Source: a virus (Duplodnaviria; Caudoviricetes). From it: a DNA stretch of 64,000 nucleotides. Positions 27,695-59,959 of the stretch are shown piece after piece (within the stretch, counting starts at the first letter, position 1; each line of letters begins with the position of its first letter). The stretch spans positions 1-64,000 of IMG/VR virus record IMGVR_UViG_3300038974_000417; one strand, written 5' to 3'. A program made the position numbers and the translations under genes. Under the pieces are notes generated by a model. That model worked only from the letters and a program-made list of their open reading frames with translations, had not been told where the DNA came from and did not search any database.

Positions 27695-28546
27695 TTATAA
27701 ATCTTTTAATAGATCGTCTATTTCATCATCAGTAATAGCTACTTCCTCTGAAGTCTCCGGTACGGATGGACCCATAGGAATATCATCTTCATCTTCCACT
27801 GGTTTATCTATAGAGGATTCATCAACTACTGAGTGTGTAGATGTTTTTAATAGATGAACATCAATAATCTTTTTAATTTCTTCATTTGAGTGAACCATTA
27901 TTATTTTACTGAGATCAAAGGTTGAATTGTATATTTCCTTTGATTTCTCATCAGTAATTCCTGGCAAGCTACCAGCTTTAATAAACTTACTACTTATATA
28001 GGTTGGATATCCACCCTCATTAGTTTCAACCTTAATTCTTAAATTATTACCATTTTTAGATAAATCGAATATACTAGGTCCAAAGTCTTCAGAATCATCT
28101 CCGCTAATGGCATCAGCAATAATCTTATGTAGTTGTTTACCGAATCGAATAATCTTTACTTGATTCTCAGTTTCCGGTGCAGTCGGGTTATTTACTACAT
28201 AACAATTTACGAGCCATTGATTGTTTCTTTTTATGGTTTTAGCTAGCTCCTTTTCTCTTTCGCTTCCCTGATATAATTTAAATCGAAGCTCGTTGAGTGG
28301 GCATCGTTCACCGAATGTAATCGGACTTACTACTGATATATATTGACCGGTTGCAAGACTAGTCCATCCAAATGTTGTATATGGAAAGATTGTATTATCC
28401 GGGTCGTGTATATTAGGAAGAAGCCGAACTACATATGTGTTGTTTTTTGTGAATCTCAGAATATCCTTAAATCCTGAGTTTGTATTCTTTTTGTTTAGAG
28501 ACTCTTTAATCTTCTCAAACATGGATGCTGTGTATGTACTATTCAT
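27695..28546 (-). CDS. gp32: single-stranded DNA-binding protein
   Basis: VVRLLP, GERCPL, WLVNCYVVNNP, KIIRFGKQL, FDLSKNG, acidic tail ending DDLLKDL. Confidence 0.85.
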   Translation of the reverse strand: MNSTYTASMFEKIKESLNKKNTNSGFKDILRFTKNNTYVVRLLPNIHDPDNTIFPYTTFGWTSLATGQYISVVSPITFGERCPLNELRFKLYQGSEREKELAKTIKRNNQWLVNCYVVNNPTAPETENQVKIIRFGKQLHKIIADAISGDDSEDFGPSIFDLSKNGNNLRIKVETNEGGYPTYISSKFIKAGSLPGITDEKSKEIYNSTFDLSKIIMVHSNEEIKKIIDVHLLKTSTHSVVDESSIDKPVEDEDDIPMGPSVPETSEEVAITDDEIDDLLKDL

Positions 28547-29612: not shown

Positions 29613-30521
29613 TTATATATTATTTAATGGTTTAGCCTTTAGGGATTTACTCATTTCTATAAAGCCTTCTGATGCCGGACAACCTCCCGCAGCTTCATGA
29701 CCACCACCACCCCATGATTCACATAGTTTACCCACATTTAAATCACACGATTTATTTCTCCTTATATATACCTTATTGAGTTTGTGATTATATAAAATTA
29801 CAACATCAGCCTGTTCTGAGATAAAGAATATATCTGATAAATCATTTATGTATTTATCTGCTAATAGTGAACATACTTTATATGATTTATCATCAATACA
29901 AATTTCTCCAACATATATTTCATTAATATTATTGTAATAGGTATTGAGAGAGTCTTGATATATTTTGATCATAGATTGCTGTTGAATAGAGAAACCGAAA
30001 AAGCCTCTTTTAAATATTTTACAAAAAGTGTTAAAATTATCTGTTAAGCTCCAATATACTGTATTCAGATTTTTACTTAATGGTGATTTGAGAGTGTATG
30101 AATCATAATCATCTGTTAGGGCTATTAAGGTCTTTTGTTGAGGCGTAAGTTGGGTACTGGGAAATTTAGCAGATAGGATTTTATATATGAGTTTGCAGGC
30201 GCTGGTATACTTTTTAACAAAGGCTTTTGCGTGTTTATATTCTGTTTTTTCGTGAGTAGAATGATGATCTATTATTATAAAATTTGAATTATCTACAAGA
30301 TCCTCGTTACCACTTACATCTAAATCTAATATATAAATTCTTTCGTATTCATCGGGTTTGTGATTTAAGCACCAATTTAAATATATTTGACGAAATTCGT
30401 ATGCGCTTCTAACAGGTACTATTTCAAATGGTATATTAGGATAGAACCACGTAGTAGTTAGATAAGATACTACCCCGTCTAGATCTAAATGGGTAAATAT
30501 GCATGTTTTTTTATCAGTCAT
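29613..30521 (-). CDS. DHH-family phosphoesterase/exonuclease with DHHA1 domain
   Basis: THLDLDG, YILD, IIDHH, DDYD, GGGGHEAAGG. Confidence 0.85.
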   Translation of the reverse strand: MTDKKTCIFTHLDLDGVVSYLTTTWFYPNIPFEIVPVRSAYEFRQIYLNWCLNHKPDEYERIYILDLDVSGNEDLVDNSNFIIIDHHSTHEKTEYKHAKAFVKKYTSACKLIYKILSAKFPSTQLTPQQKTLIALTDDYDSYTLKSPLSKNLNTVYWSLTDNFNTFCKIFKRGFFGFSIQQQSMIKIYQDSLNTYYNNINEIYVGEICIDDKSYKVCSLLADKYINDLSDIFFISEQADVVILYNHKLNKVYIRRNKSCDLNVGKLCESWGGGGHEAAGGCPASEGFIEMSKSLKAKPLNNI

Positions 30522-31848
30522 TCTGTAGTTCCTCTAATACTGTCTTTGCGGTGGATATATTATTATTTATAAACACATCTTCAGTTTCTGTTACATGTAA
30601 TGTATCATAGTCTATTTTTAGACAAGTGCTACCGAAATTCGGACCGTATCTGTTTTTTTGCATGCCCATTCTCAATATTCCTAATTCTTTATCAGTGTCA
30701 TCGGCCCATAAGCTCAATTGTACATCGGCTGTATGAGCTAGTCCCATGCTTTCACTAGTAGTTTCTAGACCTGGATCGGATTGATTATAACCAGACCTGT
30801 TAAGTTGGGTTGCACTCCAGACTGGTATACCACCAAAGCTATATGATAAACCCCTTAGATCTTCTGTAATAGATTTAATATCTATATATGAATTACCAGT
30901 GGTAATAACGGGTCTAAGAAGATTAATATAATCTACTATTATTAGGTCTGGCTTGAATTGTTTCTGCTGTACTAATTTGGTTAAATATGCTCTTAAAGTA
31001 TTTACTGTGGCTGTTTTTGTAGGATATTCTTTTATTAATAGTTTACTACCTGGATGTATATTTTTATATTCTTTTACACTTTGAACTAAATTGTCTGAAT
31101 GTTCTTTTAGCATTTTTAGAGGTATTTTTGTAATACAGCTACTCACTCTTTTTGCATACATTTGCTCAGACATTTCGAGAGTAAATATGACTATCTTTTT
31201 ATTTTGAGCGAGTACATTACTCGCCAAATTAGTAAGCATTACACTTTTACCTACGTTTGTAGCGGCGCTAATTATATATAGAGATTTACCATCGTTTACT
31301 ATTCCACCATCTAACATTTTATCCAACCATTTAAAACCAGTACTGAAAGTGGAATTTACTGTATTGAGAGTCTTAATATATTCATCAATTCGATCTATAT
31401 AATCTAGTCCAAAGTTATCTATTAGAGTTATACCACAGGCATTTTCAAACAATTTTAATGTTTTAGATAAATCTACTTCTTTATTTTGCCCTATTGTATT
31501 TGCTGTATTTAATACTGCATTATATACAGCTTTTGTTTTGAGAAAATATTCAGTATTTTTTATAAGTTCATCTTCATTATATTCAGTGTCTAGCTTTTGA
31601 AACTCTAATAATAACTGCTTAAAATGTTGTTTTTCTTGATCGTTGGCTAATCTAGATTTTATCTCTGTAAGATTTGGTACTGTTTTGTGCTCATTGTAGA
31701 ATTCTTTTATCTTAAATAGTATAGTTTTAATACATCCATTATCAAAATAAGATGGATTAATATGCTCTACAATTGTAGAAAAATATGTAGATCTTTTTAT
31801 AGAATTATAGGTCAATATATATTCAAAGAAATTGAAATCGAAGTTCAT
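30514..31848 (-). CDS. gp41: replicative DnaB-like helicase
   Basis: AATNVGKS, TLEMSE, IKEYPT, IIVDYINL, WSATQLNRSG, KNRYG. Confidence 0.95.
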   Translation of the reverse strand: MNFDFNFFEYILTYNSIKRSTYFSTIVEHINPSYFDNGCIKTILFKIKEFYNEHKTVPNLTEIKSRLANDQEKQHFKQLLLEFQKLDTEYNEDELIKNTEYFLKTKAVYNAVLNTANTIGQNKEVDLSKTLKLFENACGITLIDNFGLDYIDRIDEYIKTLNTVNSTFSTGFKWLDKMLDGGIVNDGKSLYIISAATNVGKSVMLTNLASNVLAQNKKIVIFTLEMSEQMYAKRVSSCITKIPLKMLKEHSDNLVQSVKEYKNIHPGSKLLIKEYPTKTATVNTLRAYLTKLVQQKQFKPDLIIVDYINLLRPVITTGNSYIDIKSITEDLRGLSYSFGGIPVWSATQLNRSGYNQSDPGLETTSESMGLAHTADVQLSLWADDTDKELGILRMGMQKNRYGPNFGSTCLKIDYDTLHVTETEDVFINNNISTAKTVLEELQND

Positions 31849-31849
31849 A

Positions 31850-32938
31850 TTATATCTTTAAATAATTATTAACACTTCGCACGCGTTCTTCCACTGTACC
31901 ATCTATTGTGGTTACTAGATCCGGTATAAAGAGGCTAGCACACTGAATTATATTGTCAAATACACTGATTATATGTTTTCTAAACTCCGGTTCAGTACTC
32001 CGAAGTCCATCATTTACCATTTGTAGGGTTGGTGGTAGGTAGAATATCTTAGTGTATCTATTCATGAATTCTACATTTAATAAACCTTTAGCGTATTTCA
32101 TTACAGTATCGCTAATATTGCCACTCTCATATAATATTTTAGTATATGTATATCCGTCTATTATACTTCTATCTAATACACACGGTTTAGTTGCTACAAG
32201 ACGTTCAAGATGTTTATTTAGTATATAAAGCTGAGTCTCATCATTCCCTTGTTCGTTAATTTTATATCCTAACTGCTGTGCTTCTCGAGTCATACTAGTA
32301 ATATACATGTACTTGCCAAAAATATCTTTATCTTGAAGAGCTTTTACTAAAGTAGTTTTTCCTGTACAATGGGATCCTGATATTGCATATCTTAAGTTAT
32401 ACGGTCGAGTGAATTGTCTGGTAAAGAATAATTTCCATGATAATAAACTGGTATATCTTAGTCGATCATATATAGTACCTAAATCACAATTTTTAATAGA
32501 TGTTATAACTCTATATTTAATCGGGCCATCATCTACCTCAGAAGTCACTTTATGTATTATTGATCCACTTATAGGCAATTTAAGATCATATGCTTTTTGC
32601 TGAGGATTAAACCCCTTTAATTCTGGATATTGAACTACATCACCTGGGTGACCATTGTATATATTAAGTGTATTACATACTATTTCTGGAATTATTCGAA
32701 GCCAGCCGTGAAGAGTTACTAGAGTACAGTCTGATAGATATTTTAATAAAACGTATGGAGACTTGCTATCCTCTAGAGGAATATATATAAAGTCTGTCTG
32801 ACTGGCTATTATTTTGAGATCATCACATAAATTTTCATATGGATTGGTACTTAATATTACGCTGGGGATAATATTAAGATCATTACATATTGTTGCAAGT
32901 TCTCTTCCAGTTTGAGATAATAAGGCTCCCCATTTCAT
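31850..32938 (-). CDS. formyltransferase (PurN/DpdN-like) fused to P-loop nucleotide kinase-like domain
   Basis: NGHPG...PELKG, IHKVTSEVDDGPI; then GSHCTGKTT and LDRS. Confidence 0.8.
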   Translation of the reverse strand: MKWGALLSQTGRELATICNDLNIIPSVILSTNPYENLCDDLKIIASQTDFIYIPLEDSKSPYVLLKYLSDCTLVTLHGWLRIIPEIVCNTLNIYNGHPGDVVQYPELKGFNPQQKAYDLKLPISGSIIHKVTSEVDDGPIKYRVITSIKNCDLGTIYDRLRYTSLLSWKLFFTRQFTRPYNLRYAISGSHCTGKTTLVKALQDKDIFGKYMYITSMTREAQQLGYKINEQGNDETQLYILNKHLERLVATKPCVLDRSIIDGYTYTKILYESGNISDTVMKYAKGLLNVEFMNRYTKIFYLPPTLQMVNDGLRSTEPEFRKHIISVFDNIIQCASLFIPDLVTTIDGTVEERVRSVNNYLKI

Positions 32939-33765
32939 GTTCCGTATCCTTTATTTACAAATTGTCTAAACATTTTAACATTATAGTAGATTGTTTTAAG
33001 CTGTTCAACACTAATATTTTTCTCTATTAGATCAACTAATTTTATAGAGTTCTTGGTTTTCAATCCATGTCTTGAATTATATTTAATTCCATGGATGCCG
33101 TGAACTATTGGACTGCTGGTATCTACGGACTCAAACATGTATTTGGTAAAGCCAAAGAGTCCGGCCATTTTTAATTCTTGGGGTAATGAGCAACCTAATA
33201 GGTGATATTTTTTATTTCTTGGAAGCGATATATCCTCTTCTAGTCTTTGAATAAAGAGGTTTCTCCCGATACAAAATCTTTCCCATTTGTTTAGCTTGTT
33301 TATGGGTTTATCTTCCGTTGACGATAAATAGTAACTATAATCAAAACTTATACCTATTTTTTCAATTGATTTTTTACTAGCTATAAATTGTATACATTCT
33401 TTTAGATCTTTATATGTTTTACCTTGTAAGACGGCAATTTTTCTTCCTGGTAAATCATTATAATTTTTTAACCAATTTTCTATACTATTACATGTTTCAA
33501 TTGTATCTTCTAATGTATCAGGAATTATATATTCATCCGGCCTAAGTTCGTCTATATATTTTGCAAATTTAACATGATTAAAACTTTTTCCTAATTCAAA
33601 TATTGAATTATCTAATAATACCCGTCTACCTATTTGTTTTTCCTGTAAATAAAAATGGTAGTATTGTGGATATAATTCAAATAAATGAACTAATGCATAT
33701 GAGTAATCGTTAAAATTACGGGATTCTTCTAATAGGCTTATAGGTACTTCGTGGGATATTATCAT
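32935..33765 (-). CDS. TGT/DpdA-like TIM-barrel protein (7-deazaguanine insertion candidate)
   Basis: LLDNSIFELG, IPD, AVLQG, HLLGC, SVDTSSP; queD and queE in window. Confidence 0.65.
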   Translation of the reverse strand: MIISHEVPISLLEESRNFNDYSYALVHLFELYPQYYHFYLQEKQIGRRVLLDNSIFELGKSFNHVKFAKYIDELRPDEYIIPDTLEDTIETCNSIENWLKNYNDLPGRKIAVLQGKTYKDLKECIQFIASKKSIEKIGISFDYSYYLSSTEDKPINKLNKWERFCIGRNLFIQRLEEDISLPRNKKYHLLGCSLPQELKMAGLFGFTKYMFESVDTSSPIVHGIHGIKYNSRHGLKTKNSIKLVDLIEKNISVEQLKTIYYNVKMFRQFVNKGYGT

Positions 33766-34853: not shown

Positions 34854-35243
34854 TTATTGTTCGTCAAATAACTTAATTACTTCAGGCGGCGAAGCCGGGG
34901 ATTCATTAGGTGTAACTATATTACCTGTACCACTTTGGGGTAACACTAAGTTAGAGAACATCTGCTGATATTGAGCTTTAATTCTGAAGTCCAGTTCAAA
35001 TCCAAGATTTTCCGTAATTGAATTACGGTTGAATAGCCATACTATACTTTCATCTTTAGCGGCCTGAAATTCTTTAAATATAATAGGGATCATTCTTAAT
35101 TGGAGCTGATTGGTCTGTTGGTTTGGAACTATATCTAAAATAACTGGGTTTTTTACAGCTAATTTATCAGTTGTATTCTGATCGGGAACAGCTTCTCCTA
35201 AAATGGTTCGGCTTAGTGTATCTAAAAACATTATTGTGTTCAT
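34854..35243 (-). CDS. hypothetical protein
   Basis: 129 aa with GGAG SD; operonic. Confidence 0.6.
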   Translation of the reverse strand: MNTIMFLDTLSRTILGEAVPDQNTTDKLAVKNPVILDIVPNQQTNQLQLRMIPIIFKEFQAAKDESIVWLFNRNSITENLGFELDFRIKAQYQQMFSNLVLPQSGTGNIVTPNESPASPPEVIKLFDEQ

Positions 35244-35245
35244 TT

Positions 35246-35965
35246 TTATTCTCCTTTGTTTGTTATGTTTAATATTAATGGGTTATATTTTATATCATAT
35301 TGTTCGTCTAATAAACTAACGTTATACATATATACTTCTCGTCCCTCACGGGAGTCATGACACCATTTCATTCGATCATGATTACCCGAATGGATGTGTC
35401 CAAAAACTACATATTTTGGATTTTTCATTTTGATTTCATCCATGAGCCATTTATTTCCTAAATTTTCCGTTTCGTTATATTCTAAAATAGTATCTCCGTA
35501 TCCATAAGGAGGGCAGTGTGATATTAATACATCTATATCGTTATCTATTTTAGAATAATATTCCTTTGCATATTCAGGACCTTTATTATTAGGAATATTA
35601 AATGCCCAATTACGAAGATGGGTGACCCATGGAGTACCATGAAATTTCACTCCGTCTAAAACTATATTACTATCTCTTAGATAAAATATATTATTAGGCA
35701 ATTTTGATTTAAATTCATCCTCTGCTTGATCTTTAAATATATCCTGAAAATAGAAATCATGATTTCCGGCAATCAATATTTTATATTTAGCTGGAATAAG
35801 ATTAAGATATGGAATGAAAGAATCCCAAAACCATTGTTTTTGAAGCCGTCCGCTACCCAATTCAAAATCTGGGAGTACATCTCCACCCATAACAAGAACA
35901 TCACATTCTGGAATCTTATCGGCAAAATTTTTACCGTGAGTATCACTGACTGCTACTATTTTCAT
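35246..35965 (-). CDS. calcineurin-like metallophosphoesterase
   Basis: SDTHG, GGDV, GNHD, SHCPP, FGHIH. Confidence 0.9.
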   Translation of the reverse strand: MKIVAVSDTHGKNFADKIPECDVLVMGGDVLPDFELGSGRLQKQWFWDSFIPYLNLIPAKYKILIAGNHDFYFQDIFKDQAEDEFKSKLPNNIFYLRDSNIVLDGVKFHGTPWVTHLRNWAFNIPNNKGPEYAKEYYSKIDNDIDVLISHCPPYGYGDTILEYNETENLGNKWLMDEIKMKNPKYVVFGHIHSGNHDRMKWCHDSREGREVYMYNVSLLDEQYDIKYNPLILNITNKGE

Positions 35966-35983
35966 TTATATAATAATAATAAC

Positions 35984-38578
35984 TTAACTGAATAATGCAA
36001 GTAGATTATTTGCATATGTTATATTAAAGTCTTGGATAGGCCATCCAATACAATCATATAATCGATCAACTGCGGGCCTAATAATCTTGTTAAACATTTT
36101 TACATAATCCGGTTTAATATTGAATTCCTCGGGTAGATTAGCTATATAACTTAAACACTTAATATCGTATTTATTAGCGTCACAATAAAACCATTTAATT
36201 TTATTTCCGGATGTAATAGATTCGTATTTATTATCTAATTTTAATATTTTAATTAAATTATTATAGTATATAGACCCCTTTACATGAGCGGGTGTACCTT
36301 TACCTATTCTAAACCCCTCACTACTATTTTCGTATTTACTGTAGTTATTAATACTAGATCTAAAGCAAATTTTATCTATATCTAAAGTTTTAAACTGTTC
36401 AAATATATCGTGATATATTTCATTTGTTTTGTTTATATCTCTAGTTTTAATTATAGTATTAATAACACTTCGTATAAGTACCTTTACTTCTTCAGATATT
36501 ACACTCCGAGCAATCTCAACCCCCACAAACTTTAATTTATCACATGGTATACCCTCATCATCTAATATATGAAGAATATAGCGTTTCTTTTGCTGAAATA
36601 TTCCTACATCGCATATCGCTTCTCTCTTAAATATAAATCTACTATTAATTGTGTTAAGTGTGCTTGTCGCCCAACTAGTAATATGGTTATTAAGATATTC
36701 ACCCAATTCGTTTATTATATCATGAGATTGTTGAGATATATCATTACCATCAAGTAATTTGATATTAAGTTTATCCAATATTGGTTTAATAGTAATATAA
36801 ACCGAATCTGTATCATTATATATAGTTAAATCGGTTGATATGTCGTATTTTTCTTTAGCAAATTGTCTTACTATTTCGCTTGATTGCTTTACAGTGGCTT
36901 GACCTGTGAGAGTAATACTACTAGCTGCATCGATATCATAGAATGGGCTATGTCTGTTCCCGAATGTACCGTATATACTATTCAGTAGAGTTTTGATAGC
37001 ACGTTGAGACATATCAAGTTTTAATATTTCTCGTTCTAATTGTATACGCTCGTTTATACTATCAGTATCTTTATTGTTTTCATTTTGATTCTTAGCCATT
37101 AATTTATTTAATTGAGCTAGTTGACGCTTTTTACTCTTCATATTCTTTTGAATGCCTACTCGCTCTTTATAGAGGTTTTCGATCATTTCTGGACAAAATC
37201 CCATAGTCTTTTGAGAATATAATACTTTGGCTTTGCTAATACTGAGTTGTTCTTTTTTAATGAATGCGGTTAGCTTCTCTGGGGATAGTGTGTATTTTTC
37301 ACCAGAAACTAGTTGGACTGTTATTCCATTGCTATTCTTGCTCAGTATTTTACCCACCTTGGTTTCTGGACTAATATTGAGAGTAATTATTGTGTTGGGA
37401 TATAGACTATTTGCATCAAAACTTACTACTGACTCTTTTATACCTCTGCTTGGGTCTTTTACAAATCCCCCGGCGTAGTCGGATTTAATACTATGCTTAA
37501 ACGTTGGTATTATTAATTTCTTCCTGCGAGCTTGTTGTGCCATTGCGCCTGTTACTATACTGATAGTACCAAGTGCTGCCTCAAAATTAGTCAGTCCTTT
37601 ATATGCAATAGCTCTAACAAAGTTGATAAATTGAAGTTTATCATCAAGTTTTACTACAATTGAAACATCTTGGATGTTATAGTTAACAAAGGTTTCCCAG
37701 TCGCTGTCAGCCAACTTACTTAAATCTGTAGCATTATATTTGATTTTACCTTCACCAAGCTCTAATTCACCTATGAAGTTTAAATTATAGCTTTCTCTAT
37801 CACCTCGAGAGAACTTTTTATATATATCTAAATAATCAATACAACTTACGCCGTTTATATACCATCTACCCATTTCCTTGCCGAAATCAGTTGGTATTCC
37901 TGGACGAAACCATATATTACCTACAGGGCTCAATTTAGAGGCTTCCTCTTCTCCAAGTAAAGCGGTTATTCGATTAATTATATATGGTATATCAAATCCG
38001 ATAATATTCCACCCAGTAACAATGTCGTATTCTTCTGCTTGCCAGTGAGTTATAAATGAATTAAGTAGGGATTGTTCGCTATCACATTTAATATATATCA
38101 CATCTGGATTTTTAGATATGTAGTTATTTTTTAATCCCCAAGAATAATACTTCTTTTTTATACTGTTATATATGGTGATAATATTAACTGGATGTTTTGC
38201 TTCTTCTGGTTTAGGAAATTCGTTAGCATATACTTCAATATCTATAAATCCGATCTTTAACTCATCTTTAGCAAAATCAGGAGAGTTATTTAAGTCGCTA
38301 TAGTGATCAATTAGAAATTGTTGATCTGGCGCTATATTATAAAATAATCGTGATATTCCACCTTCATTGGCAAACTTGCGACGTTCATATTGATTTGTAA
38401 ACTCTATCTTTTTAAGGTCTGTATTGTATATACTTTTTCCGTCTTTACCATTTCGAGATTCTACATATAGATATGGCTTAAATGGAATTTTTTCATATAT
38501 TCGATCTCCTGATTTATTCCATTTCCATAGATGAATAGCTCTCGCTCTACTATCATAATATACATGCCTATAACTCAT
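35984..38578 (-). CDS. gp43: family B DNA polymerase
   Basis: DIEV exonuclease, GWNIIGFD, DANSLYP, KTLLNSIYG, YNDTDS; uninterrupted. Confidence 0.97.
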   Translation of the reverse strand: MSYRHVYYDSRARAIHLWKWNKSGDRIYEKIPFKPYLYVESRNGKDGKSIYNTDLKKIEFTNQYERRKFANEGGISRLFYNIAPDQQFLIDHYSDLNNSPDFAKDELKIGFIDIEVYANEFPKPEEAKHPVNIITIYNSIKKKYYSWGLKNNYISKNPDVIYIKCDSEQSLLNSFITHWQAEEYDIVTGWNIIGFDIPYIINRITALLGEEEASKLSPVGNIWFRPGIPTDFGKEMGRWYINGVSCIDYLDIYKKFSRGDRESYNLNFIGELELGEGKIKYNATDLSKLADSDWETFVNYNIQDVSIVVKLDDKLQFINFVRAIAYKGLTNFEAALGTISIVTGAMAQQARRKKLIIPTFKHSIKSDYAGGFVKDPSRGIKESVVSFDANSLYPNTIITLNISPETKVGKILSKNSNGITVQLVSGEKYTLSPEKLTAFIKKEQLSISKAKVLYSQKTMGFCPEMIENLYKERVGIQKNMKSKKRQLAQLNKLMAKNQNENNKDTDSINERIQLEREILKLDMSQRAIKTLLNSIYGTFGNRHSPFYDIDAASSITLTGQATVKQSSEIVRQFAKEKYDISTDLTIYNDTDSVYITIKPILDKLNIKLLDGNDISQQSHDIINELGEYLNNHITSWATSTLNTINSRFIFKREAICDVGIFQQKKRYILHILDDEGIPCDKLKFVGVEIARSVISEEVKVLIRSVINTIIKTRDINKTNEIYHDIFEQFKTLDIDKICFRSSINNYSKYENSSEGFRIGKGTPAHVKGSIYYNNLIKILKLDNKYESITSGNKIKWFYCDANKYDIKCLSYIANLPEEFNIKPDYVKMFNKIIRPAVDRLYDCIGWPIQDFNITYANNLLALFS

Positions 38579-55059: not shown

Positions 55060-56241
55060 ATGAGTTTAAGTAAGACTTATGAACAATTACAGGGCGCTGG
55101 TCGCACGTTTATTACTTTAGCAGAAGTGTATGACACTATGTCCCTTAAGCCTCTATCAGAAGAAGTAGATGTATTGATGCAACACAAGCCAGCCGGTAAA
55201 GTTGAGGAGTTTGAAATTTCAAACTCTCTTGCATCTAAATTTAAAAGAGAGATTCAACTCGAAAAACATTCTCTATCAGAAATAATAGAAAAATGGGTAA
55301 AATCAAGTGGGTGGACATCTCCTCATGCACGGAAACATCTTCCCGCAGCAATAGAATCTATAATATTAAATAGTGGCCTGGATCTATCAGACGATACTAC
55401 TATTACCAATATAGTAGAGGGTATAACTGCACTAATAACAAATAAAGAAAACATCGGTACCCTTTCACAGGCATTAGTAGATAAATCACCGAATCTAACT
55501 AGCTTTTTACTTAATACAATAAAGAAGTATGAGCCCGTCTCGGTACTAAATAGGCCAGATATTATAGATATAATGATTAAAGAATTACACTTTACAGAGG
55601 GTAATGTGGCAGTGGGGCCGGGTGAAGTATTTATCACTTTATTTAGTGAGGCAATTAATCCCTCAAAGGGAGATTTACAGATTAAGAATCCATTAACTGG
55701 TGATGAATTTAAAATTGAATTAAAAAGTGACGATGGTAGAGTTAGTAAAGAGGCCGCAATAGGAATTACTGCAGGTATGAAGGCCTTGGAGTCTGCTGTT
55801 GGAGGATTTAGTAAAATGGCCAGAGGTAGCTTTACCGAGCATTTCAATAAAATGCTGGAAGGACGCAATAAGATGACCAATATAAACAAGGCTATAGATA
55901 TTATATTATCATTTACAAATAATACCGATCGAGTGCCTGCAGATATTATAGAAAATTATATGCGTTCTTCTACTATATACGGAAGTGAATTAGCAGCCTC
56001 AGTAATAGGGGCTATACAAATCGCAGATTATCAATCAATTGAAGATTTTAAATATATAGTATATTTTAAGAGCAGTTCACCATATAGTCAGGTAGTACTA
56101 GGTCCGTTTACTGAAAATTATAATAACAACTTACAGGTAATATTAGACGATATTCATAAGCTAAAAATTATTCCTAATACCGGAGGTACAGGTAAGTATG
56201 GAGAGGGTGGGAGAGGAGGATTCCCCATGAGGGTCAAGTAA
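55060..56241 (+). CDS. putative PD-(D/E)XK nuclease-domain protein
   Basis: GPGEV...GDL...IELKS. Confidence 0.45.
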   Translation: MSLSKTYEQLQGAGRTFITLAEVYDTMSLKPLSEEVDVLMQHKPAGKVEEFEISNSLASKFKREIQLEKHSLSEIIEKWVKSSGWTSPHARKHLPAAIESIILNSGLDLSDDTTITNIVEGITALITNKENIGTLSQALVDKSPNLTSFLLNTIKKYEPVSVLNRPDIIDIMIKELHFTEGNVAVGPGEVFITLFSEAINPSKGDLQIKNPLTGDEFKIELKSDDGRVSKEAAIGITAGMKALESAVGGFSKMARGSFTEHFNKMLEGRNKMTNINKAIDIILSFTNNTDRVPADIIENYMRSSTIYGSELAASVIGAIQIADYQSIEDFKYIVYFKSSSPYSQVVLGPFTENYNNNLQVILDDIHKLKIIPNTGGTGKYGEGGRGGFPMRVK

Positions 56242-57110
56242 TGAAGACTTTTGAACAATATATCAAAGAAAATTTAGACGGTTTAGCGGTCGGTAAATCA
56301 ATTAAAGATTTTTATAATAAATACTATCCTACTAAAAAGATCAGCTTCGATAGTTTTAAGGACGATTTCAAGTGTAAGGTAGAGGAGGGTATATCTGTTG
56401 AATACGAACATACTCGTGAGAAAGAAATTGCCAGGAAAATAGCACTAGATCATCTATGGGAAGACCTAAATTACTATTACAAGCTCAAGAAGTTTGTTGA
56501 ACAAGCTCAAAAAACTGCAGTTATATCGTACGGTAGATTTAATCCACCGACAATAGCGCATGAAAAGCTTATTAGGACTCTATCAGAAACAGCTAAAGCA
56601 AATAACGCAGATGCATACCTAGTGCCCTCGCACAGCGACTTCTACACAGCCAAGGCCAAGGTCGACAGAGAAAAAAACCCACTGACCTTAAGAGAGAAGA
56701 TTAAGATATTATCTAATATAGTACCTAATAATGTTATTATATCAAGCGATGGTCGTACTCTAATAAACATATTGAAGATTCTATCTGAACAAGGATATAC
56801 AAATATAATTCAATTAGCAGGTTCGGATAGAATAGAGGAATTTAGAAATTTAATTAATAAATACAACAATGTTCCGGATAAAAGAGGTATAATAAATTTT
56901 GGATTTAAAGGATATGAATTAATTTCATCTGGTGATAGAGACCCCGACTCAGAGGGTACAATAGGAATGAGTGCCTCTAAGCTGAGAAAATTAGCTCGCG
57001 AAGGTAACTATGAAGAATTTGTAAAAGGTATGCCCCAATCACTTCAATCAAACGAATCCTTACTTAAAGAAATCTATAATATAATTAGAGAAAGATCTGC
57101 TAATAAATAA
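56241..57110 (+). CDS. HIGH-superfamily (cytidylyltransferase-like) nucleotidyltransferase with extra N-terminal domain
   Basis: YGRFNPPTIAH, KNPL, GSDR, MSASKLR; N-terminal GISVEYEH..IALDHL. Confidence 0.8.
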   Translation: MKTFEQYIKENLDGLAVGKSIKDFYNKYYPTKKISFDSFKDDFKCKVEEGISVEYEHTREKEIARKIALDHLWEDLNYYYKLKKFVEQAQKTAVISYGRFNPPTIAHEKLIRTLSETAKANNADAYLVPSHSDFYTAKAKVDREKNPLTLREKIKILSNIVPNNVIISSDGRTLINILKILSEQGYTNIIQLAGSDRIEEFRNLINKYNNVPDKRGIINFGFKGYELISSGDRDPDSEGTIGMSASKLRKLAREGNYEEFVKGMPQSLQSNESLLKEIYNIIRERSANK

Positions 57111-57164: not shown

Positions 57165-57782
57165 ATGATTATAAGAAAATTATTTAAATTTGAGGGTGCT
57201 CATATTGTTCGCGATTGTTCGTCTGATAGATGTAAGAAATCCATCCACGGTCACAGCTACATTGTAGAAGTTAAGCTTAAGGCCAGTCACTTAGATAACG
57301 CCGGAATGGTTTTGGATTTCGGTCTGATGAAGGGTACCATTAGAGATGTGATTGATTCATTCGACCATGCATATTCGCTATGGACTAAGGAGAATAATGA
57401 TTATAAAGAATTCATTAAAGCTCATAGCGAGCGGTGGATTGAAATGCCATGTTCGCCGACGGCCGAGCTATACTCGGTAATGTTTTATGCTATTATATAT
57501 AATATAATTAATAAAACACAATTTAATAATGGTGAGAAAAACATAATATTAGACTCTGTAAGAGTTCACGAGACGGACACAGGCTGGGCTGAAGCTGATT
57601 ATGATGATTATATTAATATATGGCTTCGTGGGGGGTATAGTATAAAACATATATTCTTTAGTCAGCAAATAAAGATGGAGTGGAAAGATACCAAAATGTG
57701 GGATAAACTTTTAGATGAAGATCCTAAATCCCCAGAAATGCCATTTATTAATCCTAAAATAACTCTATTATATAATAGTTGA
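57165..57782 (+). CDS. queD: 6-carboxy-tetrahydropterin synthase
   Basis: AH..C..HGHSY, VLDFG, FDH, PTAE, VHET. Confidence 0.88.
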   Translation: MIIRKLFKFEGAHIVRDCSSDRCKKSIHGHSYIVEVKLKASHLDNAGMVLDFGLMKGTIRDVIDSFDHAYSLWTKENNDYKEFIKAHSERWIEMPCSPTAELYSVMFYAIIYNIINKTQFNNGEKNIILDSVRVHETDTGWAEADYDDYINIWLRGGYSIKHIFFSQQIKMEWKDTKMWDKLLDEDPKSPEMPFINPKITLLYNS

Positions 57783-58093: not shown

Positions 58094-58831
58094 ATGTTAA
58101 AACTAGCACCAGACAGCCCATTTTACTCAATTCAAGCGGAGGGTATATCAACTGGTATGCCTGCGGTTTTTATACGTACAACAGGTTGTAACTTCCAGTG
58201 CGGTCTCGATAGAAGTTCCCCAGGCACTTGGGTATGTGATAGTGAAAAGCTGTGGAAAAAAGGAACTGATTATACAAATGAGCAATTGGAACAAAAAATT
58301 ATTGACCTAGGTGAGTTACCTTCTGTACTTCTAGGCAAAACACATCTTGTGTGGACAGGTGGAGAGCCCACGCTACCCCCTAATTCTGCCGGTATACAGG
58401 AATTTTTGAGATACATTGATTTAAATCATCAAAATAATATGATATTTAATGAACTTGAAACCAATGGTAGCTTATTTTGTGAAGATTTAATACAAAAGAT
58501 TCAGCAGATTAATTGCTCTCCCAAGCTTTCCAATTCAGGAATATCAAAAGATCGAAGAATTAATACGGAATCAATTAAACAAATTATGAATCATAAGAAT
58601 TTTTGGTTTAAATTCGTAATAAGTACTGAGGATGACGTTCAAGAAATGATTAGAGACTATATATTACCCTTTAATATGCCTGCCGATAGAATAATTTTAA
58701 TGCCTGGGGTTGATAGACAGAGTGAAATAATAGAAAGAACCCAGTTCGCCATCGAGATGTCAAAGAAATATCACTATAGAATGTGTACGAGAGTTCAGAT
58801 TCTTTGCTATGACAAGGAAATAGCGAGGTAG
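58094..58831 (+). CDS. queE: 7-carboxy-7-deazaguanine synthase (radical SAM)
   Basis: SIQAEG, AVFIRTTGCNFQC..CDS, TGGEP, ETNG, SPKL, KFV. Confidence 0.9.
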   Translation: MLKLAPDSPFYSIQAEGISTGMPAVFIRTTGCNFQCGLDRSSPGTWVCDSEKLWKKGTDYTNEQLEQKIIDLGELPSVLLGKTHLVWTGGEPTLPPNSAGIQEFLRYIDLNHQNNMIFNELETNGSLFCEDLIQKIQQINCSPKLSNSGISKDRRINTESIKQIMNHKNFWFKFVISTEDDVQEMIRDYILPFNMPADRIILMPGVDRQSEIIERTQFAIEMSKKYHYRMCTRVQILCYDKEIAR

Positions 58832-58834
58832 TTA

Positions 58835-59308
58835 GTGAACAGACTCACTAAAATAGAGTATGGATGTCTAATAGCCTTGGCGGCTAGTGCAAGATCAGAG
58901 GATTTTACTACTAAAGTAGGGTGTGCAGTAGAAGATTATAGTGGAAAAATCATATCCACCGGGTATAACGGCCTGAAAAGTGGGTGTGACATGCAAAACA
59001 CACCGATTTTTACGCGAGAAGACAAACTAAAATATTTTATTCACGCAGAAACCAACGCTTTAAGCGAAATAGTTAAGAATCAAATCAAAACAATCTATAT
59101 AACTCACTCTCCCTGTCAATATTGTGCACAAAACATAGTAGCACACGGTATAAAAGAAGTAATTTATCTACAAGAGTATAATAACTGTAGTGCTTTTAAG
59201 GAAATATTTACTACTTTTGGTATTTTTCATCGAAAAATTACTGAAATCGAGAAAAATAATATATTAAATCATATGAATCAGTTAGTTTCACAGTTAACAA
59301 AGGAGTAA
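58835..59308 (+). CDS. dCMP deaminase
   Basis: RSED..KVGC, GYNG, HAE, PCxxC. Confidence 0.9.
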   Translation: MNRLTKIEYGCLIALAASARSEDFTTKVGCAVEDYSGKIISTGYNGLKSGCDMQNTPIFTREDKLKYFIHAETNALSEIVKNQIKTIYITHSPCQYCAQNIVAHGIKEVIYLQEYNNCSAFKEIFTTFGIFHRKITEIEKNNILNHMNQLVSQLTKE

Positions 59309-59311
59309 TTA

Positions 59312-59959
59312 ATGAGAATTGCAGTATCTGGTACATCTAATGTAGGTAAATCTACTTTTATACAGGATTTCATAAAGGAATTTCCAATGTACACAGCGAG
59401 TAAGGTGAATTATAGAGAACTAGTAAAAAGTAAAGGGCTCAGACTCAACAAAAAAGGATCCGAAGAGAGTCAAGAGATAATTCTCAATAGCCTGCTCGAC
59501 GAAGTAATGAATACCCCAGGTAATTGTAATATAATATTTGATAGATGTACGTTAGATAATATAGTTCATACGCTATGGATTAAGGAAAAGTATCCCAAGC
59601 GTATATCAGATGATTTTATACGTAAGTGCTTACATTTACATAAGCAAGCTACTAAATTTTATGATATTATATTTTTTATCCCAATAACTAAATACGACAA
59701 CATACCAATAGAATCAAAAGAGAATAGAGAAACTGATTTGATATACAGGGATGAAATAAATAATATTTTTAATGCAATAATAAAGACATATCACCAAAAA
59801 AGCTCTGGTTTTTTTGATATGAGAGACTGCCCCGCCATTATAGACATATTTGGATCCAGAGAAGAGCGTATTCAAATGACCAAATTTTATGTTAATCCTG
59901 ATACTGGTGATCAATATGATGAAAAAGACGACCTGATATCCAAGGCTATTATACAATAA
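59312..59959 (+). CDS. P-loop nucleotide kinase-like protein
   Basis: SGTSNVGKST, FDRC, YDIIFF; paralog of the kinase domain at 31850-32400. Confidence 0.75.
   Translation: MRIAVSGTSNVGKSTFIQDFIKEFPMYTASKVNYRELVKSKGLRLNKKGSEESQEIILNSLLDEVMNTPGNCNIIFDRCTLDNIVHTLWIKEKYPKRISDDFIRKCLHLHKQATKFYDIIFFIPITKYDNIPIESKENRETDLIYRDEINNIFNAIIKTYHQKSSGFFDMRDCPAIIDIFGSREERIQMTKFYVNPDTGDQYDEKDDLISKAIIQ

Follow-up and report, generated by a model that had tools for sequence, protein, structure and literature searches.

A DpdA3 gene and a formyltransferase-kinase fusion in a T4-like replication gene string

The stretch considered here (hereinafter the window) comprises the first 64 kb of a 73,311-nt viral contig in IMG/VR (IMGVR_UViG_3300038974_000417), which derives from an uncultured T4-like phage (Caudoviricetes) and is estimated to represent about 35% of its genome. 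Open reading frame (ORF) calls, sequence and Pfam matches delineate a T4-like string of replication genes on its minus strand, which begins with polB and continues to uvsX-DpdA3-DpdN::kinase-gp41, the double colon denoting a fusion within a single polypeptide. The two genes lodged between uvsX and gp41 constitute a DpdA3-type 7-deazaguanine DNA-hypermodification module, i.e. the published system for formylated preQ1 (fdPreQ1) in a new architecture. The string has the following composition:

35984-38578, minus strand: gp43-type family B DNA polymerase, head of the string (Pfam DNA_pol_B and DNA_pol_B_exo1)
35246-35965, minus strand: calcineurin-like metallophosphoesterase, 239 aa, between polB and the 129-aa ORF
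34854-35243, minus strand: ORF of 129 aa
33769-34845, minus strand: UvsX/RecA recombinase, directly upstream of DpdA3 (Pfam RecA, 1.6e-17)
32935-33765, minus strand: DpdA3 (P0001), 276 aa, from sequence and structure comparison
31850-32938, minus strand: DpdN::kinase fusion (P0002), 362 aa (Pfam Formyl_trans_N at residues 73-161, AAA_28 at 183-335)
32414-32938, minus strand: DpdN domain, P0002 residues 1-175, PurN-like formyltransferase
31850-32395, minus strand: kinase domain, P0002 residues 182-362 plus stop, AAA_28 P-loop kinase
30514-31848, minus strand: gp41/DnaB-type replicative helicase (Pfam DnaB_C, 5.2e-26)
29613-30521, minus strand: DHH phosphoesterase, overlapping the gp41 end
27695-28546, minus strand: gp32

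The original prediction, made from the DNA alone, had described uvsX, a TGT-like ORF (TGT, tRNA-guanine transglycosylase), a PurN-like domain fused to a P-loop kinase and gp41 as tightly coupled, and the sequence bears this out. The four genes are translationally coupled: the uvsX stop lies 3 nt ahead of the DpdA3 start (TAA-TAT-ATG), DpdA3 and P0002 overlap by ATGA at 32935-32938, and the P0002 stop is 1 nt from the gp41 start (TAA-T-ATG). A promoter and terminator scan of 27-40.5 kb found nothing above shuffled sequences and no terminator within the gene string. The DpdA3 module is expressed together with the replication genes.

P0001 is 44% identical over 269 aa (6e-73) to the DpdA of Flavobacterium phage immuto and 45% identical over 274 aa (4e-64) to gp056 of Campylobacter phage CP220, and it matches PHROG 19058 (2.6e-57). 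Both phage proteins are members of DpdA3, a subfamily that Hutinet, Cui et al. established (PMC10516641). The suspicion that the TGT-like gene encodes a DpdA can accordingly be narrowed: P0001 is a DpdA3 and groups with the DpdA3 proteins of fully G-replaced phages, not with tRNA TGTs. The DpdA3 of phage phiST matches the family profile with 98.5% probability. P0001 has no Pfam or NCBIfam match, and thus no match to Pfam TGT (PF01702); the DpdA3 family profile retrieved no TGT from PDB sequences, and hhalign against E. coli TGT gave a probability of only 4.5%. Since profile and hhalign searches found no link, the relationship to the TGTs rests on structure and motifs. The AlphaFold2 (AF2) model of P0001 (pLDDT 92.4) retrieves tRNA-guanine transglycosylases in Foldseek (2.5e-8), and VIA-align places it closest to archaeosine TGT (Z 17.3) and the bacterial DNA preQ0 insertase DpdA (7ui4, Z 16.8), followed by bacterial TGT (15.5), QTRT2 (14.8) and Cap10 (14.2), with generic TIM barrels at Z 13.3 or below except PdxJ (Z 15.2, rank 4). 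The putative catalytic residues Asp52 (LDNSIFE) and Asp215 (DTSSP, fitting DTSxP) are invariant and, together with QG and HLLG motifs, parallel D89 (TDSGGFQ), D264 (DCVMP), IIQG and YLMG of E. coli TGT, a mapping made at the level of motifs and not residue by residue in a structural alignment. In comparison with E. coli TGT, DpdA3 lacks the CxCxxC...H zinc subdomain and P0001 ends soon after the barrel; the family is shorter by about 140 residues, zinc subdomain included, than TGTs and bacterial DpdA (276 residues in P0001 against 413 in the 7ui4 chain). Thus, P0001 is modelled as a pared-down TGT-fold TIM barrel. An identity as a tRNA TGT (Tgt or ArcTGT) was rejected, given that both the Pfam TGT match and the zinc subdomain are missing. 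Isoelectric points of DpdA3 proteins are uninformative on DNA binding, because E. coli TGT is acidic as well.

P0002 is modelled by AF2 as a confident two-domain unit (pLDDT 94.7, pTM 0.92). Residues 3-173 share 41% identity with immuto DpdN (gp67) across the full length of the latter (1e-38), and the top structural matches of this domain are glycinamide ribonucleotide (GAR) transformylases (Foldseek 1.5e-11; VIA Z 19-20.6). Its N95, H97 and D136 are invariant and align with N106, H108 and D144 of E. coli PurN, and it retains the loop corresponding to PurN SGNGSN, which in PurN binds the GAR phosphate. The domain, earlier recognized as PurN-like and tentatively equated with DpdN, is an orthologue of DpdN (group 1 of Hutinet et al.) that retains the catalytic Asn/His/Asp of PurN.

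Residues 183-361 of P0002 are 32% identical to immuto gp68 (labeled 'thymidylate kinase'), and the kinase domain is 29% identical to CP220 gp057. It matches Pfam AAA_28 (1.1e-14), as do 30 of 30 family members, and displays a Walker A motif (GSHCTGKT), a DRS motif and an NDGLRS lid; the kinase family conserves Walker A, the DR motif and a lid of the form (D/N)DGxRS. Against the PDB, the kinase profile recovers the ribosylnicotinamide kinase (RNK) of NadR (6.8e-7), with which it has the DDGxRS lid in common, thymidylate kinase (TMPK; 8.6e-6) and also deoxynucleoside kinases (dNKs); T4 gp1 is not among these matches. In VIA comparisons, the domain scores Z 15.3 to deoxyadenosine, deoxyguanosine and Drosophila (Dm) deoxynucleoside kinases and Z 13-14.3 to TMPKs, and no DNA-dependent ATPase is among the structural matches listed. 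Further invariant residues outside the P-loop sit where dNK and TMPK enzymes carry their acceptor-binding motifs, and probably serve the same purpose. On these structural and profile grounds the domain is a predicted nucleoside or nucleotide kinase, a small-molecule enzyme of the dNK/TMPK/NadR-RNK type. Neither a DNA-binding domain nor any likeness to DpdB, the partner of bacterial DpdA, was detected by profile, Pfam or structure; DpdB is reportedly ParB-like and not a kinase of the dNK/TMPK type. A DpdB-like ATPase was therefore rejected as an identity for the domain, as only small-molecule kinase families match and a ParB-like domain is missing. PurN on the one hand, and NadR RNK and the deoxynucleoside kinases on the other, have the same folds and catalytic motifs as the two domains of P0002, but identity to them is only 12-23% and the substrates of P0002 are presumably 7-deazaguanine (deoxy)nucleotides.

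DpdA3 and the kinase across phages

The DpdA3 family is very large, comprising 1,781 clusters when grouped at 90% identity and 3,749 representatives (E<=1e-3) when the cut-off is 50%. We surveyed 80 independent IMG/VR loci seeded on DpdA3 only. In 74 of them a kinase homologue is encoded no more than 1.5 kb from DpdA3, directly after DpdA3 or after DpdN, and the six loci without one have less than 800 nt of contig left downstream; wherever the downstream sequence sufficed, the kinase is present (74/74). The kinase is a universal partner of DpdA3. No other gene family is constant beside DpdA3 in these loci, MazG-like genes occurring in 15 and a small phosphoribosyltransferase (PRTase) in 18. 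A housekeeping dTMP kinase that merely hitch-hikes was rejected as an identity for the kinase, given this complete pairing across unrelated phage types.

The canonical cassette reads DpdA3-[DpdN]-kinase-QueF, with DpdN in 34/80 loci and QueF after the kinase in 65/80. In about 40 loci it is embedded in a T4-like replication module, usually in the order polB-A-N-K-F-x-uvsX-gp41 (A, DpdA3; N, DpdN; K, kinase; F, QueF), while three loci show polB-x-uvsX-A-N-K-F-gp41, whole or in part. The window represents a third arrangement, in which N and K are fused and QueF is gone from the locus. Among 164 loci compared (157 with DpdA3), the window is alone in encoding N and K as a single ORF, and the DpdN::kinase architecture recurs in ten other metagenomic protein clusters with 45-74% identity (P0003-P0011 among the carriers). 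Because these other clusters, in syntenic contigs, carry the same architecture, it is no sequencing slip: the fusion is real and rare. Gene tables of two larger contigs show the syntenic order ribonucleotide reductase (RNR), SMC-like, polB, 128 aa, RecA, DpdA3, N::K, DnaB, DHH and gp32, and throughout the fused lineage the three domains keep their catalytic residues unchanged. DpdN::kinase consists of fused neighbours of the canonical cassette; in immuto only 2 nt separate the DpdN gene from the kinase gene, so that losing a stop codon suffices to fuse them.

Two further fusion types were recovered. DpdA3::DpdN proteins of 447 aa come from two independent samples (P0165, L170:2262-3605; P0176, L171:554-1897), and an AAA_28 kinase adjoins both. 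In P0050 (L165:1150-2376) a dUTPase is N-terminal to DpdA3 in one polypeptide, in the gene order dUTPase::DpdA3-QueF-309 aa-DpdN-kinase-QueC-DnaE, from a phage with a DnaE polymerase. The three fusion types (dUTPase::DpdA3, DpdA3::DpdN and DpdN::kinase) link activities in a chain. A search for longer DpdA3 fusions found no DpdA3::kinase protein and one protein with an extra domain, P0132 (586 aa, Logan), whose DpdA3 has a 320-residue N-terminal domain lacking a Pfam match.

Among cultured phages (50,697 phage records searched), every Firehammervirus and immuto record has a kinase homologue, and the many DpdA1 and DpdA2 phages yielded none. In phiST, the DpdA3 gene adjoins CGPG_00066 (L168:16382-16861), whose P-loop product of 159 aa matches Pfam AAA_18 (29.8 bits) and has the Walker A motif GEICSGKD; two genes beyond it comes a MazG-like gene. 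The source paper calls CGPG_00066 unknown and without homologues (PMC10516641), and an hhalign comparison of our kinase profile with it was not significant. In Bacillus BSTP12-like phages, a P-loop protein remotely like the kinase is encoded directly upstream of a DpdA3-like gene, next to Gat-QueC, QueD and FolE.

The closest described systems share the module to different degrees. Immuto has orthologous DpdA3 (44%), DpdN (41%) and kinase (32%) genes in the same order and likewise encodes QueD and QueE; it differs in that its DpdN and kinase are separate genes and not one polypeptide, that QueF follows the kinase there and does not in the window, that it uses PolA, whereas the window genes are flanked by uvsX and gp41 in a T4-like replisome with PolB, and that its MazG-like and PRTase genes have no counterpart near the window module. 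CP220 has DpdA3 (gp056, 45%) followed by the AAA_28 kinase (gp057, 29%), as in the window, but no DpdN; its end product is dADG (100%), and an HD-phosphohydrolase/AAA_33 protein is encoded upstream of DpdA3. The DNA of phiST contains 100% dDG, and the neighbour of its DpdA3 is the kinase-like AAA_18 protein. In the literature searched, we found no paper linking DpdA3 to a kinase. New in the present analysis are the DpdN::kinase and DpdA3::DpdN fusions, the P-loop neighbours in phiST and Bacillus phages, and the structural comparison that groups the kinase with dNKs and TMPKs.

The predicted product and a proposed route through free nucleotides

Two genes for 7-deazaguanine synthesis lie at 57-59 kb, where they had been predicted:

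57165-57782, plus strand: QueD-like 6-carboxytetrahydropterin synthase (Pfam PTPS, 8.6e-24)
58094-58831, plus strand: QueE-like radical-SAM 7-carboxy-7-deazaguanine synthase (Pfam Radical_SAM and Fer4_12, weak; phmmer match to immuto QueE)

The QueD-like protein has the HGH motif of the QueD type, not the HRH of DpdL, and at 24 kb from the DpdA3 cassette the two genes make for a dispersed pathway. As also anticipated, folE, queC and queF are missing from the window, and a search of the rest of the contig likewise found none, QueF being the source of the amine for DpdN to formylate; QueF, QueC and FolE would come from the unsampled 65% or so of the genome or from the host, many hosts making preQ1 themselves. 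In the DNA of immuto fdPreQ1 accounts for 100%, and substitution is complete in each of the three DpdA3 phages that were tested (PMC10516641). The expectation of a formylated 7-deazaguanine thus holds to the extent that, by orthology with immuto, fdPreQ1 is most likely the product of this phage, while the gap in QueF, QueC and FolE on a partial contig keeps it a prediction.

The constant presence of the kinase bears on how that product is made. In the current model a DpdA inserts a free 7-deazaguanine base into finished DNA, which was extended to DpdA3 by homology alone, and the paper that defined DpdA3 does not contain the word 'kinase' (PMC10516641). We propose instead, with a probability of roughly 55%, that the modified base is built before replication on free nucleotides and is not swapped into finished DNA. 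The preQ1 base would be made by FolE, QueD and QueE along with QueC and QueF. DpdA3 would then swap guanine for preQ1 on a free deoxynucleotide, most likely dGMP, by means of the TGT Asp pair, and the DpdN domain would formylate the aminomethyl group of the nucleotide with 10-formyl-tetrahydrofolate, much as PurN does with the ribonucleotide GAR; base exchange and formylation might occur in either order, and the acceptor could be a nucleoside or a nucleotide. The fused kinase would phosphorylate the product, which the host Gmk probably does not accept, in parallel to T4 gp1 acting on hydroxymethyl-dCMP. Host Ndk would supply the triphosphate, and gp43 would incorporate it in place of dGTP, with complete replacement of G by fdPreQ1 as the outcome.

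Several lines of evidence favour this nucleotide-level route. A kinase needs a sugar hydroxyl or a phosphate, while the published scheme has only free bases up to the DNA; the kinase is obligatory beside DpdA3 and is fused to DpdN; and the closest relatives of DpdN, the GAR transformylases, act on a 5'-phosphorylated ribonucleotide. The dUTPase::DpdA3 fusion and the pyrophosphatase or HD neighbours in immuto, phiST and CP220 point the same way, as does the fact that the DpdA3 barrel is stripped down and that 100% G replacement is seen in exactly this subfamily. The lack of kinase homologues in the DpdA1 and DpdA2 phages searched is in line with this, and so are two findings of PMC10516641: ADG nucleoside occurs in cells infected by CP220, and DpdA3 by itself left DNA in E. 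coli unmodified. A precedent for the underlying logic is the T4 hydroxymethyl-deoxycytidine (hm-dC) pathway, where the gp56 dCTPase, the gp42 dCMP hydroxymethylase and the gp1 dNMP kinase effect complete replacement during replication: in both cases the canonical dNTP would be cleared, the modification made on the dNMP, and the modified dNMP passed to a phage kinase. The enzyme families are nevertheless unrelated, and the base is derivatized in T4 but would be exchanged here.

Stated in its strongest form, with odds that we place just short of even, DpdA3 would not be a DNA transglycosylase at all, but a base-exchange enzyme for free deoxynucleotides, the first with a TGT fold, working before replication with DpdN and an obligatory kinase (in the window a single bifunctional enzyme) to feed a 7-deazaguanine dNTP to the phage polymerase. 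This would overturn the published post-replicative model for the DpdA3 subfamily, add a new reaction type to the TGT superfamily and make 7-substituted 7-deaza-dGTPs, useful as reagents, accessible by enzymes. Phages rely on 7-deazaguanine DNA as a major counter-defence against restriction. DpdA3 phages replace every G, other DpdA proteins reach at most 30%, and DpdA3 has resisted reconstitution; a nucleotide-level route would explain why only these phages attain 100%. A kinase that the defining paper did not mention now emerges as a universal partner of DpdA3 and, in the window, as a fusion to the formyltransferase.

Several observations weigh against the nucleotide-level route. To our knowledge, no TGT-superfamily enzyme acts on a mononucleotide, the known substrates being tRNA, DNA and protein (Cap10). 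No dGTP-clearing enzyme (MazG, PRA-PH, dUTPase or HD) was found on the 73-kb partial contig, and FolE, QueC and QueF being absent from its whole length (about 35% of the genome), fdPreQ1 is a product deduced from relatives. AAA_28 kinase-like proteins are also present in 89 Streptomyces phages, so that the fold is not exclusive to this pathway; Samisti12 (L083:7046-7615), the sole Streptomyces region inspected, has the kinase homologue and no DpdA3 there. Some of the fusion types are known from single contigs, and the support for the nucleotide route is throughout comparative or a matter of structural prediction. The literature, moreover, assigns DpdA3 a post-replicative role (PMC10516641). 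Of the original prediction of a pre-replicative route, the basis has thus been strengthened by the universal DpdA3-kinase pairing, the dNK/TMPK-type fold and the three fusion types, although the route itself contradicts the published model and lacks a dGTP-clearing enzyme on the contig.

That published model, which we regard as distinctly the less probable account, holds that DpdA3 post-replicatively swaps G for preQ1 or formyl-preQ1 in DNA, with DpdN formylating the free base or dPreQ1 in DNA and the kinase-like protein serving as a DpdB-like ATP-hydrolysing helper or as a tuner of nucleotide pools. It can draw on the DNA preQ0 insertase DpdA (7ui4, Z 16.8) being among the structural neighbours of DpdA3, and on the bacterial Dpd system (DpdA, the DpdB ATPase and DpdC), which is alike in pairing a TGT-fold DpdA with an ATP-using partner and in handling 7-deazaguanine in DNA; bacterial DpdA is said to require the ATPase activity of DpdB. 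The DpdA3::DpdN fusions fit it too, though they would fit a nucleotide route equally well. Yet the kinase is a 180-aa small-molecule enzyme of the dNK/TMPK/NadR-RNK type with no DNA-binding domain or DpdB likeness detected, and the model has no role for the dUTPase::DpdA3 and DpdN::kinase fusions or the MazG and HD neighbours. Full replacement is also unusual for post-replicative exchange: the bacterial Dpd modification, which is post-replicative, affects <0.1% of G, and DpdA1, DpdA2 and DpdA4 replace 0.1-30% (PMC10516641). Finally, DpdA3 alone was inactive in an E. coli DNA assay (PMC10516641).

The ADG nucleoside of CP220-infected cells could equally speak for some other nucleotide-level chemistry, an improbable option in our assessment, in which the kinase is a deoxynucleoside (5'-OH) kinase and either DpdA3 makes or uses a deoxynucleoside (dG + base -> modified dN + guanine) or modified nucleosides are salvaged, or in which a PRTase/RNR ribonucleotide route provides the nucleotide and DpdA3 only repairs residual G in DNA. 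The best structural matches of the kinase are indeed deoxynucleoside kinases (Z 15.3), but they stand only about 1 Z above the TMPKs, which the aligner counts as a tie, and the DR motif and the overall profile match TMPKs too. Its best profile match is a ribonucleoside kinase, the NadR RNK. Counting against this option, both the PurN-type enzymes and the T4 precedent suggest intermediates that are monophosphates. The small PRTase of 18 surveyed loci and of immuto would suit a ribonucleotide route, but it is far from universal, unlike DpdA3 and the kinase. The last alternative, that the product is not fdPreQ1, with QueF lost from the cassette and DpdN::kinase acting on another amine substrate, or with the module decaying, is very improbable: although the 73 kb hold no QueF, QueC or FolE, and the gene tables show no QueF at the DpdA3 locus in any fused-lineage contig examined (against its position after the kinase in 65/80 DpdA3 loci), the contig covers only about 35% of the genome with QueD and QueE already 24 kb away, the catalytic residues of the three domains are invariant across the fused lineage, and many hosts make preQ1.

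Variant cassettes and neighbouring genes

Some relatives depart from the canonical cassette. Four IMG/VR loci (L067, L073, L077 and L078) have a variant in which the formyltransferase is long (302-309 aa) and the kinase has 228 aa; that of L067 bears a Cys-rich C-terminal tail, and both L067 and L078 have a dCMP deaminase and a PRTase upstream. The BSTP12-like phages (BSTP12, L084:4336-5684; BSP7, BSP19 and Youna2) are 55-kb Bacillus/Weizmannia phages whose DpdA3-like protein has 23-28% identity; their loci predict a 7-deazaguanine DNA modification, as yet uncharacterised, and the annotations of the records appear to be shifted. The Streptomyces kinase homologues (Samisti12 and 88 related records) are 22-25% identical, and that of Samisti12 is encoded in a replication/recombination region with a MazG-like gene, a methyltransferase being a neighbour in many of its relatives.

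Within the replication string, the metallophosphoesterase (35246-35965) is missing from the same position in the syntenic fused-lineage contigs, and could represent an insertion, a nucleotide phosphatase or a small nuclease resembling Mre11. The DHH phosphoesterase (29613-30521), in turn, is kept at the gp41 end in the fused lineage and is the sole conserved phosphohydrolase near the module, which makes it a speculative candidate for nucleotide clearing.

Around the QueD and QueE genes there are three further ORFs:

56241-57110, plus strand: DUF5661 and cytidylyltransferase-like protein, ahead of QueD
58835-59308, plus strand: dCMP deaminase, following QueE
59312-59959, plus strand: second, stand-alone AAA_28 kinase, just past QueE and the dCMP deaminase

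The second kinase has no DDGxRS lid and shares 29% identity with the kinase domain of the fusion. Together with the cytidylyltransferase-like protein it could form a split NadR-like pair for NAD salvage, or these ORFs could encode additional enzymes by which the modification pathway acts on the nucleotide pool.

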